Assembly (NCBI GenBank): GCA_037481815.1
Contig: JBBFKX010000002.1
Location: forward strand, 1-64,000
Direction: 5' to 3'
Origin: a candidate division WOR-3 bacterium
Lineage (GTDB): Bacteria > Hydrothermota > 32-111
Length of the DNA stretch: 64,000 nt
In this document: one piece after another, positions 6,510-14,295 of the stretch
Numbering within the stretch: the stretch's first letter is position 1
Layout: the number at the start of each line of letters is the position of its first letter
Made by a program: the position numbers and the translations under genes
Notes under the pieces: generated by a model
What the model was told of the DNA's origin: nothing
What the model saw: only the letters and a program-made list of their open reading frames with translations
The model's database searches: none

Positions 6510-7327
6510 AAAAAAAATTTAAAATATCTTCAAGAAGAATAATACAGATCGTTTCCTTTATAGTTTTTAATCCATACATACTGTTAAATCCAAAAGCGGG
6601 AAAAGTTTTGTATCAGGGCAAATTAAAATCTTTATGTGTCCCCATCCTGAACTGTTATTCCTGCCCTCTTGCTGTTGGTAGTTGTCCTCTTGGGGCTTTA
6701 CAACAGATGATAAAAATTTCTCAAATCCCATATCTTTTGTTAGGATTTTTTGGAACTATCGGAATTTTTATTGGAAGGTATCCATGTGGAAACTTCTGTC
6801 CTTTCGGTTTTTTACAGGAACTTTTATATAAAATAAAAAGTTTTAAGTTTAGAGTCAAAAGACCATTCAGATACATAAAATATATTTTTCTCATTCTTTC
6901 TTTTTTAATTCCATTTTTTTACAAAGAACCGTTTTTTTGTAAGTTTATCTGTCCTGCCGGAACGATCGAAGCAAGTTTACCTCAGATACTTTTTAATCCA
7001 GCACTTTTATCAAACATTAGCTGGATATTCTACTTAAAAATATTTCTTGGAATCGCGTTTGTTTTTACCTCAATCACAACAAAAAGATTTTTCTGTTCAA
7101 CAGTATGCCCAATAGGTGCAATATATGGATTGTTCAACAGAATAAGTTTACTCCAGATCAAATATGATAAAGAAAAGTGTTCAAAATGTGGTGTTTGTAA
7201 CGCTGTTTGCCCTATGGATATAAACATTTATGAAAACACCAAAGATATAGATTGTATAAGGTGTTTTGAGTGTGTTAACAGATGTCCTTATGGAGCGTTG
7301 AAGGTTTCAAACAATTTTAAAAAATAA
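6506..7327 (+). CDS. Membrane 4Fe-4S binding protein (NapH/YccM-like polyferredoxin)
   Basis: CVPILNCYSCPLAVGSCP, CGNFCPFG, FCKFICPAG, FCSTVCPIG, CSKCGVCNAVCP, CIRCFECVNRCP. Start moved to ATG 6506. Confidence 0.85.
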   Translation: MKKKFKISSRRIIQIVSFIVFNPYILLNPKAGKVLYQGKLKSLCVPILNCYSCPLAVGSCPLGALQQMIKISQIPYLLLGFFGTIGIFIGRYPCGNFCPFGFLQELLYKIKSFKFRVKRPFRYIKYIFLILSFLIPFFYKEPFFCKFICPAGTIEASLPQILFNPALLSNISWIFYLKIFLGIAFVFTSITTKRFFCSTVCPIGAIYGLFNRISLLQIKYDKEKCSKCGVCNAVCPMDINIYENTKDIDCIRCFECVNRCPYGALKVSNNFKK

Positions 7328-7540
7328 TCATTTATTCTGTTCTAAAAACTGGTTCATCTCTTCAACGAATTTTTCCAAATCCTTAATTCCTTTACTTTCA
7401 AGTAGTTCCCTCAAACTCCCCCATACGGGAGCACCACATCTGATACATATTATATCGCGGTCCATAAGATAAGATATCAATTGTGGATACTCTCTTACAA
7501 TATCTTCAACTTCCATATCAAGTGATACTTTATTATTCAT
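7328..7540 (-). CDS. DUF1858-family small protein
   Basis: DMEVEDIVREYPQL...ICIRCG...SLRELL pattern. Confidence 0.7.
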   Translation of the reverse strand: MNNKVSLDMEVEDIVREYPQLISYLMDRDIICIRCGAPVWGSLRELLESKGIKDLEKFVEEMNQFLEQNK

Positions 7541-8744
7541 CCTCGTTCTCCTCCAGTACTTTTACAACATCCTCCGCTATAACCAGCTCTTCATTCGTTG
7601 GAATCACAAGAACTTTTACCTTTGAATCATCGGTTGAGATCACCATTTCTTTTCCTATACATGAATGGTTTTTTTCCCTGTCAACCTTTACACCCATAAA
7701 CTCCATACCTTTCAAAGAGATTTCTCTGACATCGGGATCGTTTTCTCCGATTCCAGCAGTAAAAACTATTGCATCAGGTCCTTCGAGAACAACTGAATAG
7801 GCACCGATAAATTTTTTCACTATATAACAGAATATCTGAAATGCGAGTTCAGCCCTTTTGTTTCCATTTTTTGCAGCGTTCTTGACCTCCCTCATATCGG
7901 AAGAAACACCTGAAACACCCAAAAGCCCAGAATGTTTTGTTAAAAGTGATGTTGCCTGTTCTATAGTTAACTCTTCTTTTTCCATTATGTTCAGAATAAC
8001 AGCAGGATCAAAATCACCACACCTTGTTCCCATCATGACACCTGCGATAGTTGAAAAACCCAAAGATGTATCTATCGAGCGACCATTTTTCACAGCACTG
8101 ATAGAACATCCGTTTCCAAGATGACATGTTATCACTGAAAAATCATTGATATTCCTGTCAAGTATTTCGCAACTCCTCTTGGAAACATAGTAATGACTCG
8201 TTCCATGAAATCCATACCTTCTGATCTTATACTTTTCATAAAAAACATAAGGTATAGGATAAATGTAAGCGACCTCAGGAAGTGATTGATGAAACGCTGT
8301 ATCAAAAACTGCAACCTGTGGAACTTTTGGTAGTGCTTTTATCGCAGCGTTTATTCCCCTTAAATTGTAAGGATTATGAAGCGGTGCTATCTCAGAGTAC
8401 TCTTCTATAGCTTTTATCACCCTATCGTTTATCAACACAGATCTTGAAAATTTTTCACCTCCATGAACAACTCTGTGTCCAACAGCATCTATTTCATTAA
8501 TCGACATCAAGACACCATGTTGTTTATCAACTATAAGTTTTAAAACATTTTCGATTGCAACCGAATGACTTATTATTTCATCCTCCAACTCATAAACATC
8601 ACCATCGAACCTTTTCTGTTTTATTACCGATTTTGTCATTCCTATTCTGTCAACAAGACCCCTTAGAAGTGAATCACCTGTTGATGTATCTATGATCTGA
8701 TATTTCAAAGAAGAACTGCCTGAATTTAAAACTAAAACTTTCAT
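7533..8744 (-). CDS. ackA: Acetate kinase
   Basis: LNSGSSSLKY, GHRVVHGG, APLHNP, FDTAFH, RYGFHGTSH, HLGNG, FTAGIGEN, PTNEE. Confidence 0.97.
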   Translation of the reverse strand: MKVLVLNSGSSSLKYQIIDTSTGDSLLRGLVDRIGMTKSVIKQKRFDGDVYELEDEIISHSVAIENVLKLIVDKQHGVLMSINEIDAVGHRVVHGGEKFSRSVLINDRVIKAIEEYSEIAPLHNPYNLRGINAAIKALPKVPQVAVFDTAFHQSLPEVAYIYPIPYVFYEKYKIRRYGFHGTSHYYVSKRSCEILDRNINDFSVITCHLGNGCSISAVKNGRSIDTSLGFSTIAGVMMGTRCGDFDPAVILNIMEKEELTIEQATSLLTKHSGLLGVSGVSSDMREVKNAAKNGNKRAELAFQIFCYIVKKFIGAYSVVLEGPDAIVFTAGIGENDPDVREISLKGMEFMGVKVDREKNHSCIGKEMVISTDDSKVKVLVIPTNEELVIAEDVVKVLEENEDE

Positions 8745-8750
8745 CTTTAC

Positions 8751-9608
8751 CTACCTGTAATTTAAAAATCCCTGTTTTGCTTTTATTCCTGTATAACCTT
8801 TATCGAGAAGATTTTTCAAAATTTCTGGAACCTTATAAACTGAACTATCTATCTTTGAAAGTTCCTCAATCCACATCTTGATATTGTCAAGTCCTATCTC
8901 ATCAGCCATCGAGAGTGGCCCTTTGTACATTTTTAATCCTTTTTTCATAACAAGATCAAACTCCTCGGGAGATATGCCAGTTTCTCTCATAACATCGCAT
9001 GCCTCAAGAACTGTCGCTATCAAAACTCTTGGACCGATAAGTCCTGCACCATCTTTCAGTTCAACTATTTTCAGATCAAGTTTTGCAAAAAATTCTTTTA
9101 CTATCTCAAGTGTGGTTTCCGAAGTATTCTCATTTTTAAAAAGTTCGATTAATTTATAAATCGGAACAGATGGAACAGGATGTATGTTTACAGATTTCTG
9201 TTCAAGTTCATCGTTTTCTAAAACATCTTTTAAACTGTTCGTCTGCGAGGTAAAGATAACGGGGATATTCATGTTGACTTCATTTTTTATCTTTTCCCTG
9301 ACCTCTCTTTTCCTCTGTAATCTTTCTTCAACCGATTCAACAAGAATATCTATATCGTGTTTTGAAAAATCAGCAAGATTCTCTATATGTTCAATCCTTG
9401 AAAGCATAACCTTTTTATCCTTTAAAGTGAGTCCCCAGTGTTCTATTTCATAGTCAATATTTCTTTCGATTATATTCAATCCAGCCTGATAAACATCATA
9501 ATCTTTTTCGTAGATAACAGCGGTTAGCCCTTTGTTTAAAACTGATTGAACAAGACCGGGACCAAGATTCCTAATTCCATAAAAACCAATTTTTGTTATC
9601 TTTATCAT
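8751..9608 (-). CDS. 3-hydroxyacyl-CoA dehydrogenase-family protein with degenerate motifs
   Basis: ESVEE, GPLSMADEIGLD and G-x-K-x-x-x-GF C-terminus typical of Hbd/FadB; NAD-binding and catalytic motifs altered. Confidence 0.75.
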   Translation of the reverse strand: MIKITKIGFYGIRNLGPGLVQSVLNKGLTAVIYEKDYDVYQAGLNIIERNIDYEIEHWGLTLKDKKVMLSRIEHIENLADFSKHDIDILVESVEERLQRKREVREKIKNEVNMNIPVIFTSQTNSLKDVLENDELEQKSVNIHPVPSVPIYKLIELFKNENTSETTLEIVKEFFAKLDLKIVELKDGAGLIGPRVLIATVLEACDVMRETGISPEEFDLVMKKGLKMYKGPLSMADEIGLDNIKMWIEELSKIDSSVYKVPEILKNLLDKGYTGIKAKQGFLNYR

Positions 9609-10012
9609 CTCCTCTCCTTAAAGAAAACTTTTTTTTCATAAATGTAAGATTTTTTTGAATCTGAAGCATGAACTGAGTTTCTTCTGAACGTTTCACCGAA
9701 TGTGTGTCTTATCGTCCCTTTTTTTGCATCTTTTGGATCAGTTGCACCAACTATTTCTCTTAGATACTCGATCGCATTTTTTCTTTCCAGAACAACTCCA
9801 ACTGTTAACCCAGAGCACATATATTCAACAAGATCATTAAAAAATTCTTTGCTCCTGTGAACCTTATAAAACTCTTTTGCCAATTTTTTTGTCATCTTCT
9901 GGGATTTTATCTGAACTATTTTAAAACCTTTTTCTTCAACTATTGAAAGAATTTTACCAACAAGATTTCTTCCTGTCGCATCAGGTTTTATCAACATAAG
10001 GGTTCTTTCCAG
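9605..10012 (-). CDS. ndk: Nucleoside-diphosphate kinase (probable CTG start)
   Basis: IKPD, FYKVH, GATDP, GTIR, NSVHASDS. Frame extends to CTG-GAA-AGA-ACC-CTT (MERTL-like) at 10012. Confidence 0.93.
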   Translation of the reverse strand: MERTLMLIKPDATGRNLVGKILSIVEEKGFKIVQIKSQKMTKKLAKEFYKVHRSKEFFNDLVEYMCSGLTVGVVLERKNAIEYLREIVGATDPKDAKKGTIRHTFGETFRRNSVHASDSKKSYIYEKKVFFKERR

Positions 10013-10013
10013 A

Positions 10014-10955
10014 TTACCCCCTTTTGATAAGTGTTCCCGACTCTCCTCTTACAACATCTTTTCCAAGTTCAACAGAGCCAATCAAAGCCCTTTTACCTGT
10101 GTTTTCAACAAACCTGATCATCGCTTCAATCTTAGGGCCCATCGATCCGGGCGGAAATTGTCCTTCAATAAAATATTTTCTTGCTTCAGATACTGTTAAC
10201 TCTTTGAGTTCCTGTTCGTTCACTTTTCTGAAATTGATGCAAACCCTTTTTACAGCAGTTAAAATATAAAACTCATCAGCCCCTATTTCCTCTGCAAGAA
10301 GTGCCGATGCTTTATCTTTATCGATAACAGCGTCAAGACCTTCAAGGTTTCCTTTCGAATCATAGTATACAGGAATCCCTCCACCACCTGCTGCGATAAC
10401 TATATAACCGTTTTCAAGCAAAGTTTTTATAACATCTTTTTCGACAATACCTTTTGGTTCAGGTGAAGGAACAACTCTTCTATACCCTCTTCCAACATCA
10501 TGTTTTACAACCCATCCTTTTTTCAAAAGGTTTGGGACATCCTCCTCTTTATAAAATTTTCCAACAAATTTTGAAGGATTTTTTATTGATGGGTCATTTT
10601 CATCAACAAGCACCTGAGTTATCACAACTGCAACCTGTCTATTTATTCCCTCTTTTTTTAATCTATTCATCAAAGATTGTGAAATCATATAACCTATAGA
10701 TCCCTGAGTCTCAGCATCTATAACACCAAGTGGAAGTGATGGCACCTCATTTTCAGCGATCTCATTTTTCAAAAGTTCAAAACCTGCCTGAGGACCATTA
10801 CCATGAGTTATTACAACTGAAAAGTCCTGACGGAGTAATTCGATTACTCCGTCAAGAGACATTCTTGTATTTGCAAACTGCTCGGTTATCGTTCCCTTCT
10901 GACCATCCTGAATCAGCGCGTTTCCACCTAAAGCAACAACTGCAATCTTAGTCAT
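10014..10955 (-). CDS. arcC: Carbamate kinase
   Basis: VALGGNAL, THGNGPQ, RRVVPSP, GGGGIPV, AVIDKD, GSMGPK. Confidence 0.96.
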   Translation of the reverse strand: MTKIAVVALGGNALIQDGQKGTITEQFANTRMSLDGVIELLRQDFSVVITHGNGPQAGFELLKNEIAENEVPSLPLGVIDAETQGSIGYMISQSLMNRLKKEGINRQVAVVITQVLVDENDPSIKNPSKFVGKFYKEEDVPNLLKKGWVVKHDVGRGYRRVVPSPEPKGIVEKDVIKTLLENGYIVIAAGGGGIPVYYDSKGNLEGLDAVIDKDKASALLAEEIGADEFYILTAVKRVCINFRKVNEQELKELTVSEARKYFIEGQFPPGSMGPKIEAMIRFVENTGKRALIGSVELGKDVVRGESGTLIKRG

Positions 10956-10960
10956 AATAC

Positions 10961-12286
10961 TTATTTTTTAATCTTTTTCACAAAATTTTTCAAAACATCT
11001 TCAAGATCTGGTTTTCCGATTTCCTGTAGATCATAACCAACTCTTACTGATGGCTTGTTGATCTTCACCAATCTTCCAAGGTTTATCGGTGTTGCTATAA
11101 CTATCGTTTCACATGGAATCTTGTTTATCGTTTTTTCAAGATCAGAGATCTGTTTTTTCGAATAACCCATTGCAGGAAGTATTGCGCCTGCGTCAGAGTA
11201 TTTTTCGTATGTCTCTTTTATTTCACCAACAGCATAAGGATGTGGATCTATTATCTCTTTTGCTCCAAACCTTTTTGCTGCAACAACACCTGCTCCATAT
11301 TTCATTTCGCCATGAGTGAGTGTTGGACCATCCTCAACAACAGCAACCTTTTTTCCTTTTATAAGTTCAGGTTTATCAACCGAAACTGGAGATGCTGCTT
11401 CAATTACTGTTGCTTTTGGATTTACTTTTGCGATATTTTCTCTTACGATCTCAACATTTTCAGGTTTCGCTGAATCTATTTTGTTTATAACAACAACATC
11501 TGCGAGTCGAATGTTAACACAACCAGGATAATATGTGAGTTCATGACCTGGTCTATGAGGATCAGCAACTGTTATCACAAGATCAGGTTTATAGAATGGA
11601 AAATCGTTGTTTCCACCATCCCATAGAATTATATCTGCCTCTTTTTCTGCTTGCCTAATTATATCCTCATAATCAACACCTGCATATACAACCGTTCCAT
11701 TGTTTATATGAGGTTCATATTCCTCCATCTCCTCTATAGTACAATTATGTTTTTTCAGATCCTCTATTGAAGCAAACCTCTGGACTCTCTGTTTTTCAAG
11801 ATCACCATAAGGCATGGGATGTCTTATCGCAACAAGTTTATAACCCATACCTCTTAAAATTTTTGATACAGCCCTTGTTGTCTGAGATTTACCTGAACCT
11901 GTCCTCACTGCAACTATTGATACAACTGGCTTTGATGATTTTATATATGTCTGTTCAGGTCCAAGAAGCATATAACTTGCACCAGCAGCCATCGCTTCTG
12001 CACCTTTGTTCATAACATACTGGTTGGAAATATCCGAATATGAGAACACAACAAGATCAACCTTTTTTTCCTTTATTATCTTTGTCATATCCTTTTCATC
12101 ATAAATAGGAATCCCCTTTTTATAAAGTTTTCCTGCAAGTGATGGAGGATACAATCTTCCCTCTATATCTGGAATCTGTGTAGCAGTGAAACCAACAACC
12201 TCATATTCCTCATTATTTCTAAAAAACACATTAAAATTATGGAAATCTCTTCCTGCTGCTCCTAAAATCAAAACTCTCTTTTTCAT
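10961..12286 (-). CDS. arcE: Arginine synthetase ArcE-like P-loop enzyme (often annotated as cDPG synthetase-like or GTPase)
   Basis: GAAGRDFHNFN, ATQIPDI, RTGSGKSQT, RHPMPYG, TIEEMEEYEPH, WDGGNND, EDGPTLTHG, PAMGY; directly upstream of arcC. Confidence 0.8.
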   Translation of the reverse strand: MKKRVLILGAAGRDFHNFNVFFRNNEEYEVVGFTATQIPDIEGRLYPPSLAGKLYKKGIPIYDEKDMTKIIKEKKVDLVVFSYSDISNQYVMNKGAEAMAAGASYMLLGPEQTYIKSSKPVVSIVAVRTGSGKSQTTRAVSKILRGMGYKLVAIRHPMPYGDLEKQRVQRFASIEDLKKHNCTIEEMEEYEPHINNGTVVYAGVDYEDIIRQAEKEADIILWDGGNNDFPFYKPDLVITVADPHRPGHELTYYPGCVNIRLADVVVINKIDSAKPENVEIVRENIAKVNPKATVIEAASPVSVDKPELIKGKKVAVVEDGPTLTHGEMKYGAGVVAAKRFGAKEIIDPHPYAVGEIKETYEKYSDAGAILPAMGYSKKQISDLEKTINKIPCETIVIATPINLGRLVKINKPSVRVGYDLQEIGKPDLEDVLKNFVKKIKK

Positions 12287-12335
12287 ATCTAATACCTCCT
12301 GCTGTTAATTTAATTTTAACAAAAATTAAAAAAAT

Positions 12336-12364
12336 AAAATAACATATTAAAACTTTTAAGTCAA
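12336..12364 (-). promoter_or_regulatory. Candidate promoter of the arcE operon (leadered)
   Basis: TTGACT-17 nt-TATTTT with upstream TG; AGGAGG RBS before ATG 12286. Confidence 0.45.
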
Positions 12365-12386
12365 GTGTTATGATTACAGGAAATAA

Positions 12387-13337
12387 TCACTTTTTGATGA
12401 TCATGTTAAGGTAGGGATAGAAAAATCCTTTATCGATTTGGGGAGAGATTTTTTGTAGAAGATCAAAAAATTTTTTTTCTTTCGAAAAGGGTAAAAAAAA
12501 CTGTTTCAAATGAGAAACCACATCGATATCCTTTGCTTTTATATCCCATGCAATTTCAAGTTCATGAAAACTCATCCCTCTGCCCCTTCTTAAAAAATGT
12601 AAAAATTTTTCATCTGAGTACTCGTTATAGATTTCCCTGAAATTACTCCTCTCACTGAACTTCGCATAATCGAAAGCTATTCGATCAGGTAACCAGTTGA
12701 AGTATGGAAGTAGTGATGTATGTTCATCGAAAAACCATAGTCGGTTTGGAGTTTCGATTATCGTAAAAAAAGAACCTTTTTCAAGAAATGAAAAATATTT
12801 TTTCAAACAATCTATCCTTTCCTCATAAACCATATGTTCAAAAGATGCATAAAAAATAATCATATCAAATTTTCTATCTTTAATATTTTCAAAAACAACT
12901 GATGCATTACCCTCAATAAATTCAGCTTTTAAACCATAAATGGACATCCTTTCCTTTGCTACCGTTAAACTATCTTTATCAATATCTATACCGGTAACAG
13001 AAGCACCCTGTTCAGAGAGTGCAACAGTTGATGATCCTGTTCCACAACCAATCTCCAAAATTTTTTTATCTTTTAAATTAAAAGTTTTCGATATCCATGG
13101 TATATAATAGTATCTGTTTTCATTAAGGCGCAAATAGAGTTGTGTTTTTAAGTCATTTTCAAATGTCTTTTCAGAAAAATTACTTTTCTCCCTCCATCCT
13201 TTAAAAAAAGTATCTTCAAGTGTTTTTTGAAAATTTTTTAATTTTTCATCAGGAATTTTGATAAAGTTTTTTTTGATATTTTTAGGAACTTGCTCTTTTT
13301 GTAACTTTTTATAAACCTTATAAACAAATTTTTTCAT
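12387..13337 (-). CDS. Class I SAM-dependent methyltransferase (UbiG/FkbM-like)
   Basis: ILEIGCGTG, GIDID, FEHM, ETPNR. Confidence 0.85.
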   Translation of the reverse strand: MKKFVYKVYKKLQKEQVPKNIKKNFIKIPDEKLKNFQKTLEDTFFKGWREKSNFSEKTFENDLKTQLYLRLNENRYYYIPWISKTFNLKDKKILEIGCGTGSSTVALSEQGASVTGIDIDKDSLTVAKERMSIYGLKAEFIEGNASVVFENIKDRKFDMIIFYASFEHMVYEERIDCLKKYFSFLEKGSFFTIIETPNRLWFFDEHTSLLPYFNWLPDRIAFDYAKFSERSNFREIYNEYSDEKFLHFLRRGRGMSFHELEIAWDIKAKDIDVVSHLKQFFLPFSKEKKFFDLLQKISPQIDKGFFYPYLNMIIKK

Positions 13338-13343
13338 ATTTTT

Positions 13344-13372
13344 ATTTTAACTGATTTTTCAATTTCTTTCAA
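13344..13372 (-). promoter_or_regulatory. Promoter, leaderless geometry
   Basis: TTGAAA-17-TAAAAT, 6 nt to ATG 13337, no SD. Confidence 0.6.
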
Positions 13373-13456
13373 GAAAATATTTCCCGGGGACGGTGCTTGA
13401 CTTTTTGACATTTTTTAGAAATGTTCAATCAAAAAATCAATTAAAACTTTTTCATC

Positions 13457-13484
13457 TTGAATTGGTTTCTTTTATCCTTATACT
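13457..13484 (+). promoter_or_regulatory. Promoter, leaderless geometry
   Basis: TTGAAT-16-TATACT, 7 nt to ATG 13492, no SD. Confidence 0.6.
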
Positions 13485-13491
13485 TACTTTT

Positions 13492-14295
13492 ATGTATGAA
13501 ATTTTAAAACTTTATGCTTTTATCGTTAGAAAATTTATAAACAGAAAAAAAAATATACAAAAAATGCATTCCCACCTGAAAAAAGGATATGAAGAGTATT
13601 TAAAGTTAAAAGATAAAGAGATAATAGATTACAATTCAAAAAAATTTAAAATCATAAAAATAAAAACAAAGATTTTTACCGGTGGAGAAGACCTTTTAAA
13701 CTATATCTATGAAAACCTTAAAGATGAGATAAAAGAAAATGACATTTTAACAGTTGCAGAGTCAATTGTAGGAATAACACAGAACAGGGCTTATCGAGTG
13801 GATGAGATAAAACCATCAAAATGGGCATACTTTTTATATCCATGGGTTTCAAATGTTGATTATGGCACAGGACTTGGTATGGCAGAGACGATGGAATGCG
13901 CTATAAGAGAGGTCGGGCTGAAAAGAATCTTGAAAGCAACACTTTTTGGATTCTTTGATAGAATCAGAAAAAAGAGTGGTTCATTTTATAAAGTTGCAGG
14001 AAAAGAGGTCAAAAGTATAGATTTCAAAAAAAACCATCCTATACCTTTTAAAGGTTCAAATAATTATATAGTTCTTTCTCCAAAAGATCCTGAAAAATTT
14101 GCAAAAAATCTTTACAAAAAATTTTCAAAAAATATTTTTGCTTGTGTTGTTGATGCAAACAATGTTTCGATTGATATTCTGGGACTTTATCCTGAAAATA
14201 AAAATGTTGAAAATATAATAATGAATGTAATGAAAGGAAATCCAGCAGGACAAGATGATGAAAAAACCCCTATCATCATTATCAGAGAAATTTAA
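13492..14295 (+). CDS. Coenzyme F420-0:L-glutamate ligase (CofE)-like protein
   Basis: DILTVAESIVGITQNR, FYKVAG, VVDANN, GNPAGQDDEKTPIIIIR match the bacterial CofE-like subfamily. Start set to ATG 13492 from promoter geometry. Confidence 0.7.
   Translation: MYEILKLYAFIVRKFINRKKNIQKMHSHLKKGYEEYLKLKDKEIIDYNSKKFKIIKIKTKIFTGGEDLLNYIYENLKDEIKENDILTVAESIVGITQNRAYRVDEIKPSKWAYFLYPWVSNVDYGTGLGMAETMECAIREVGLKRILKATLFGFFDRIRKKSGSFYKVAGKEVKSIDFKKNHPIPFKGSNNYIVLSPKDPEKFAKNLYKKFSKNIFACVVDANNVSIDILGLYPENKNVENIIMNVMKGNPAGQDDEKTPIIIIREI

Follow-up and report, generated by a model that had tools for sequence, protein, structure and literature searches.

The stretch of DNA under study (the window) comprises 64,000 nucleotides, C2:1-64000, of contig JBBFKX010000002.1 (C2) from a candidate division WOR-3 bacterium, whose 1.58 Mb assembly (GCA_037481815.1) is divided into 20 contigs and is 95.1% complete. 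The open reading frame (ORF) list of the window contains six co-directional ORFs on the minus strand at positions 7328-12286, which begin with a gene for a predicted arginine synthetase, or ATP-forming arginine deiminase (ArcE), and are the subject of this analysis. This arcE-like gene (10961-12286) encodes a P-loop protein of 441 amino acids (aa) that is assigned to the enzyme by homology. It is followed by arcC (10014-10955), the gene for carbamate kinase (TIGR00746, 371.6 bits with a cut-off of 358.25); ndk (9605-9997), the gene for nucleoside diphosphate kinase (PF00334, 154.3 bits with a cut-off of 27, and NF001908, 156.2 bits with a cut-off of 155); a gene for a 285-aa 3HCDH-family paralog (8751-9608), which matches PF02737 and PF00725; ackA (7533-8744), encoding an acetate/propionate-family kinase (TIGR00016, 507.1 bits with a cut-off of 293.4); and a gene for a 70-aa DUF1858-like CxxC protein (7328-7540). 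Gaps of 5 and 16 bp separate arcE from arcC and arcC from ndk, respectively; ndk and the 3HCDH-family gene overlap by 4 bp, a 6 bp gap precedes ackA, and ackA overlaps the small gene by 8 bp. The first-pass annotation of this DNA had described a tight co-directional set of these six genes, in agreement with our results; its statement that all gaps were 6 bp or less, or overlaps, holds at four junctions but not between arcC and ndk. The label DUF1858 that it gave to the small protein corresponds to a weak match to PF08984, whose score (24.4 bits) is under the curated cut-off (32.2 bits), and the match to TIGR03980 is also sub-threshold (31.8 bits with a cut-off of 44.95). The protein contains a conserved motif, ICI(R/K)CGAPVWG, which includes the CxxC.

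Family models gave little information on the arcE product: in Pfam only a weak match to the cobW/HypB/UreG P-loop family was obtained (23.2 bits), and in NCBIfam there were zero matches. A word-indexed protein search scored 8000 candidates, each of which matched; the best 120, which were inspected, aligned over the full length at 67-99% identity. Among them were proteins that their sources attribute to WOR-3 or Hydrothermia bacteria, along with Thermococcus and Pyrococcus proteins at 68-71% identity, and source labels such as 'GTPase' and 'cyclic 2,3-diphosphoglycerate synthase' occurred. A protein atlas offers the labels 'GTPase' and '3HCDH' and nothing further. In a pairwise BLASTP alignment with one of the Thermococcus proteins (P0103), 302 of 440 residues were identical (69%) with no gaps. 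The Walker A motif reads R128-T-G-x-G-K-S-Q-T136, and R128, T129, G130, G132, K133, S134, Q135, and T136 are invariant in 21 homologs. Michimori et al. reported that TK2200 (ArcE) of Thermococcus kodakarensis converts arginine, ADP, and phosphate into citrulline, ammonia, and ATP, and that its homologs, previously annotated as hypothetical proteins or GTPases, occur throughout Thermococcales and widely in bacteria and are only distantly similar to cyclic 2,3-diphosphoglycerate (cDPG) synthase (PMC11032458). The reassignment of the family from 'cDPG synthetase/GTPase' to arginine synthetase, which the first-pass annotation had stated, is thus published (PMC11032458).

The relation of the arcE product to cDPG synthetase was assessed by sequence and fold searches of the PDB. 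In the sequence search against solved structures (phmmer), the best matches were cDPG synthetases with 35.4 and 21.8 bits, confined to residues 210-336 and spanning ∼110 residues. An AlphaFold model of the arcE product, based on 21 homologs (pLDDT 88.8), gave as top Foldseek matches the Methanothermus fervidus cDPG synthetase structures 8ork and 8oru (E 4e-18, 14-15% identity, TM-scores 0.42-0.46), followed by LpxK and HypB. Like the M. fervidus enzyme, the arcE product has a multi-domain P-loop architecture; unlike it, the protein is predicted to catalyse a different reaction, and the two are no more than 14-15% identical. Set against 69% identity over 440 residues, this indicates that the arcE product shares the cDPG synthetase architecture but belongs to the ArcE clade, as had been proposed, and arginine synthetase activity is predicted for it on this basis.

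The same first-pass annotation had noted that ornithine carbamoyltransferase (OTC), which the pathway requires, is outside the window and should be sought elsewhere in the genome. A true OTC gene was located at C2:95523-96497, 83 kb from the operon (432 bits with a cut-off of 281), where it adjoins RidA and DapF genes and no arginine cluster is present. The product was also considered as an agmatine/putrescine carbamoyltransferase, which was rejected because it scored 359.8 bits with a cut-off of 500, whereas the OTC models pass. The genome further encodes ornithine aminotransferase RocD (TIGR01885, 541 bits with a cut-off of 378), glutamate-semialdehyde dehydrogenase RocA (TIGR01237, 668 bits with a cut-off of 660), and the pyrimidine genes pyrR-pyrB-pyrC and pyrF. 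In line with the expected absence of arginine deiminase (arcA, TIGR01078), there were zero matches to its model over the cut-off anywhere in the 95.1%-complete genome. The profile search of the same genome also returned nothing over the cut-off for argG, argH, and argC; for the large (carB) and small (carA) subunits of carbamoyl-phosphate synthetase (CPS); for proC and ornithine cyclodeaminase; or for ornithine/arginine decarboxylase, and no permease of the APC family, to which the ArcD antiporter belongs, was found in it.

Taken together, the identities of the genes, their order and its conservation, and the pathway complement of the genome, which are observed directly, most probably reflect a catabolic arginine synthetase pathway operon that is joined to two general phosphotransfer enzymes, Ndk and AckA; the direction of flux is what we infer. 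In the first step, ArcE would convert arginine, ADP, and phosphate into citrulline, ammonia, and ATP. OTC, encoded 83 kb away, would split citrulline into ornithine and carbamoyl phosphate, from which ArcC would make a second ATP, so that two ATP would be obtained per arginine. RocD and RocA, whose genes lie elsewhere in the genome, would then oxidise ornithine to glutamate. Some of the carbamoyl phosphate is probably drawn off to pyrimidine synthesis, because pyrB, pyrC, and pyrF are present and CPS was not found; in T. kodakarensis, an archaeon that lacks CPS, ArcE together with ArcB is reported to be the source of carbamoyl phosphate (PMC13260591). Ndk may serve in balancing nucleoside triphosphates, as proposed in the first-pass annotation, and AckA could be mechanistically coupled to arginine breakdown. 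With respect to acyl-phosphate metabolism in general, three phosphate butyryltransferase (Ptb)-like genes and one butyrate kinase gene are present elsewhere in the genome, and none of the three reaches the cut-off of the phosphate acetyltransferase (pta) model. Two Ptb-like genes are at C1:846193-848207 and C1:301689-304564 on another contig: one is accompanied by butyrate kinase and adjoins a 2-oxoacid:ferredoxin oxidoreductase, and the other adjoins methylmalonyl-CoA epimerase. Overall, the gene content resembles that of a bacterium that ferments amino acids and has several acyl-phosphate routes.

The order of the genes and its conservation were examined in related and distant arcE loci. In the family to which the bacterium belongs (f1), the order arcE-arcC-ndk-3HCDH-like gene is present in 12/12 loci (the window and 11 relatives), ackA comes next in all ten loci that are long enough, and the small CxxC gene follows ackA in eight of these ten (the window and seven relatives; not in L110 and L112). 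The identity of the 3HCDH-like protein across the f1 loci is as low as 53%, and retention of the order in all 12 at this divergence is more than expected by chance. In the sister family f2, arcE-arcC-ndk-ackA occurs without the 3HCDH-like gene in 3/3 loci of sufficient length, and the identity of ackA between the two families is down to 51%. The core arcE-arcC-ndk-ackA package is therefore conserved at the class level (two families), and the 3HCDH-like gene is a later insertion that is specific to one family. In the two f2 loci examined in this respect (L116:6294-8546 and L113:2669-4921), the operon runs into genes for NuoE-like (152 aa) and NuoF-like (593 aa) proteins, of the kind that typically forms the NADH module in bifurcating hydrogenases. 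The continuation suggests a larger energy super-operon. Among 13 further loci, 12 from other families of the phylum and one being a second arcE copy in a genome of the same genus, arcC is adjacent to arcE in two and ackA in none.

For the distant comparison, the best 80 of 585 confirmed arcE loci were taken from contigs representing one genome per species, and neighbours were scored by tblastn with the window proteins (E ≤1e-5, coverage at least half); flank lengths vary, and absence here means absence from the stretch fetched. Among these 80 loci, arcC adjoins arcE in seven and ndk is near arcE in four, with arcE-arcC-ndk recurring in two Marinimicrobia loci (L035 and L038), and ackA, the 3HCDH-like gene, and the small gene are near arcE in none. 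An OTC-like gene is near arcE in 26, with 25-29% identity in 23 of them and 39-46% in the other three. The 23 loci (within L006-L079) are mostly from Bacteroidales, and in them arcE is directly followed by a carbamoyltransferase with this low identity to the OTC of our genome, perhaps an acetyl- or succinyl-ornithine-type enzyme. Such a pairing may mean that ArcE is used differently in this group, possibly in biosynthesis.

A possible but less probable explanation of the locus is that the gene order is inherited; ndk, ackA, and the 3HCDH-like and small genes would then be functionally unconnected with arginine breakdown and would do no more than belong to one highly expressed housekeeping operon. 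Each of the six genes is single-copy in the genome by tblastn. In the case of ackA, this is the only close copy, with three distant butyrate-kinase-like paralogs elsewhere, and as ndk and ackA are the sole copies they are housekeeping genes too. The absence of ackA near arcE in the best 80 distant loci and the continuation of the f2 operon into NuoE- and NuoF-like genes, which resembles a general energy operon, are also what such an arrangement would produce. It is countered by the survival of arcE-arcC-ndk-ackA between two families at 51% ackA identity and by the presence of arcE-arcC-ndk in the two Marinimicrobia loci. This explanation is compatible with the catabolic operon, since ndk and ackA may be there for co-expression alone.

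The distribution of the pathway genes was surveyed in a phylum sample of 41 genomes, our own included. As these genomes are related to one another and constitute a sample, the counts are descriptive and do not serve as a test. ArcE is present in 38/41 genomes, a strong carbamate kinase in 37/41 (28 over the cut-off, eight at 340-357 bits, and one split at contig ends), and OTC over the cut-off in 37/41. No arcA match over the cut-off was found in any of the 41 (one 36-bit fragment). The large subunit of CPS was found in none of the 19 class genomes and in eight of the 22 from outside the class (seven over the cut-off and one split). The three genomes that lack ArcE (G028, G038, and G040) do not have a real carbamate kinase either, and two of them have CPS. 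ArcE and CPS are complementary across the phylum sample, and, instead of arginine deiminase, a whole phylum-level bacterial lineage appears to rely on ArcE, mostly without CPS. The second arcE copy in the genome of the same genus (G004:C4:31179-32483, L103) is 61% identical and has no operon partners nearby. In genome G014 (L116:2398-3728), two ORFs (239 and 193 aa) take the place of a single arcE homolog, and the genome search reported an in-frame TGA; either this is due to a frameshift or a sequencing error, or the gene is broken.

Several observations weigh against the catabolic operon. The OTC gene is unlinked to it, and arginine uptake is unexplained because no APC-type permease was found in the genome. 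The low frequency of arcC, ndk, and ackA near arcE (7, 4, and 0 of the best 80 distant loci) makes the wider package lineage-specific. The orthology of ArcE rests on Thermococcales proteins other than TK2200. Furthermore, the reaction is near equilibrium and its direction in vivo is not fixed. In a second alternative, ArcE is mainly synthetic and forms arginine from citrulline, ATP, and ammonia in place of ArgG/ArgH, with ornithine derived from glutamate semialdehyde via RocD and carbamoyl phosphate from a reversed carbamate kinase. This would fit the lack of argG and argH matches over the cut-off in the genome, the presence of OTC and RocD, and the reversibility of the reaction, and a biosynthetic role has been raised for some bacteria (PMC11032458). 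However, the bacteria for which it was proposed have CPS and an ornithine pathway (PMC11032458), whereas CPS and argC were not found in our genome; the operon partners of arcE are ATP-yielding kinases; the equilibrium is described as lying on the breakdown side (PMC11032458); and carbamate kinase of T. kodakarensis is reported to have been unable to supply carbamoyl phosphate (PMC13260591). We therefore regard a mainly synthetic ArcE as quite unlikely. The remaining alternative, that the first gene encodes a cDPG synthetase, as many database names have it and as the best structural match could imply, is already disfavoured by the short phmmer alignments (35 and 22 bits), the low identity and TM-scores to the solved enzyme, and the full-length match to ArcE-clade proteins of Thermococcales. 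Nothing at this locus pointed to cDPG metabolism, and we give this alternative almost no weight.

The 3HCDH-like protein (8751-9608) had been described as hbd-like in the first-pass annotation. This is correct insofar as both 3HCDH domains (PF02737 and PF00725) are present; however, its best score with the NCBIfam Hbd models is 129.3 bits with a cut-off of 408, and active-site residues are changed, so it is a derived 3HCDH-family paralog and not a canonical Hbd. A PF02737 search of the genome gave one other match, which was weak. In the word-indexed search only 20 close clusters were found, at 53-89% identity, and the following match was at 23%; a profile search of 1.84 billion representatives returned one at 493 bits, and the next at 191 bits. 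The clade corresponds to a single 50%-identity cluster that is confined to family f1. Its profile was aligned to Hbd (PDB 4kuh). In Hbd, His138 is described as acting in catalysis and Ser117 and Asn188 in substrate recognition (PMC10470551), and a Ser-His-Glu triad and the motif HXFXPXXXMXLXE have been reported (PMC11476959). Like Hbd (PDB 4kuh and 9fbd), the clade has kept the His-Glu pair (His138 and Glu150 of Hbd, corresponding to His143 and Glu155). Unlike Hbd, it has an invariant Asn124 at the position of Ser117, an invariant Pro193 at the position of Asn188, and a nearly invariant Arg13 in place of the second glycine of GxGxxG (GxRxxG). The nearest single-domain outgroups have normal GxGxxG, SNTS, and HF.NP motifs. 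The mean column identity within the clade is 71%, which argues that the protein is functional. We considered that it might fill a step after ornithine, given that proC was not found in the genome, but RocD and RocA leave no catabolic gap and this role was rejected.

Upstream of arcE, at a distance of 100 bp and on the same strand, there is a gene for an S-adenosylmethionine-dependent methyltransferase, and a gene for a NapH-like ferredoxin converges on the 3' end of the operon with zero spacer. The 100 bp gap contains a candidate sigma-70-type promoter (12336-12364, minus strand; TTGACT, 17 nt spacer, TATTTT, with TG), and arcE is preceded by a strong ribosome-binding site (AGGAGG, 12295-12300, minus strand). 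The promoter scan was at the chance level (27 sites, with 26.4 expected from shuffled sequence), so the candidate amounts to a consensus match. The terminator scan was also at the chance level (2 sites, with 2.8 expected). One of the elements that it flagged is a stem-loop inside arcC (10857-10825 in the direction of the minus strand; codons ∼33-45) with a perfect stem of 15 bp and a CGA loop, followed by CUUUUCAG, a short U-run.

This stem is present in 11/11 distinct f1 sequences, in which an 84-nt window folds at -23.7 to -36.0 kcal/mol, and in 0/8 carbamate kinase genes outside f1, for which the energies are -6.2 to -16.1 kcal/mol. In the covariation alignment of the 11 sequences (L085 was omitted, as it is identical to L084 in this region), 93.3% of 165 cells pair, compared with 25.5-48.5% in slid controls, and double-sided changes affect 5 of the 15 pairs (15 cells). 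None of 500 shuffles reached the observed percentage of paired cells, number of double-change cells, or covariation score; the count of pairs with a double change was reached by 25/500 and the pair-type count by 474/500. One of the compensated changes (CGT to CAT with GAC to GAT) is nonsynonymous, and the presence of G-U pairs on the sense strand favours an RNA over a DNA structure. As the sequences are related and the structure was taken from one of them, this covariation is suggestive but does not amount to proof. No Rfam family matched within positions 7000-13600. The hairpin may be an internal attenuator or a transcript-stability element that separates arcE from the downstream genes. Transcription of the operon from one promoter, as envisaged in the first-pass annotation, would place the energy-yielding phosphotransfer steps under co-expression from a shared unit; the conserved hairpin suggests internal control.

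The pathway predicted for this locus is already known, and the operon adds a new example of it from a bacterium; bacterial ArcE homologs have already been reported to be widespread (PMC11032458). Our literature search found three papers in which ArcE is named, no paper linking it to WOR-3 bacteria, and none pairing 'WOR-3' with 'carbamate kinase', and the supplementary text of PMC11032458, its tree and cluster figures apart, does not mention WOR-3, Hydrothermia, acetate kinase, or nucleoside diphosphate kinase. The additions made here are modest: a class-level kinase package, the complementarity of ArcE and CPS, a derived 3HCDH paralog, and the arcC hairpin. To our knowledge, ArcE has been studied in one archaeon only. 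Its use across this lineage extends the reach of the pathway and points to arginine dependence of uncultured bacteria, which is useful for the design of cultivation media. A label that is widespread in databases, 'cyclic 2,3-diphosphoglycerate synthase' or 'GTPase', is corrected as well. Two small leads that can be tested are the dehydrogenase-like gene and the covarying hairpin in arcC. A more far-reaching reading, which we put forward tentatively, is that arginine is the obligatory carbamoyl-phosphate source as well as an energy substrate in the class, since CPS was not found in any of the 19 class genomes and our own genome carries pyrB, pyrC, and pyrF. In this reading, the operon would be tuned by the arcC hairpin, which would set the ratio of ArcE to the downstream kinases, and by the 3HCDH-family protein, whose active site is remodelled and which would have a new role. 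If true, this would be the first bacterial counterpart of the carbamoyl-phosphate supply shown for T. kodakarensis in 2026.

When the locus is compared with classical arcABC operons (e.g. of Pseudomonas aeruginosa), the predicted route from arginine through citrulline to ornithine, with ATP formed via carbamate kinase, is common to both. However, an ATP-forming ArcE stands in for hydrolytic ArcA, arcB is located away from the operon, and the genome search found no APC-family permease. The closest known system is the pathway of T. kodakarensis, composed of ArcE (TK2200), ArcB, and ArcC (PMC11032458, PMC13260591). The ArcE protein is ∼69% identical to Thermococcales proteins, and, as in T. kodakarensis, OTC and carbamate kinase are present, arcA, ArgG/ArgH, and CPS were not found in the genome, and the pyrimidine pathway is present. 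In contrast to T. kodakarensis, the host is a bacterium, arcE shares its operon with arcC, ndk, ackA, and two further genes, and ornithine is probably converted to glutamate via RocD/RocA, with no ornithine cyclodeaminase found in the genome. Since the pyrimidine pathway is present, arginine would likely supply both ATP and carbamoyl phosphate in this bacterium as well.

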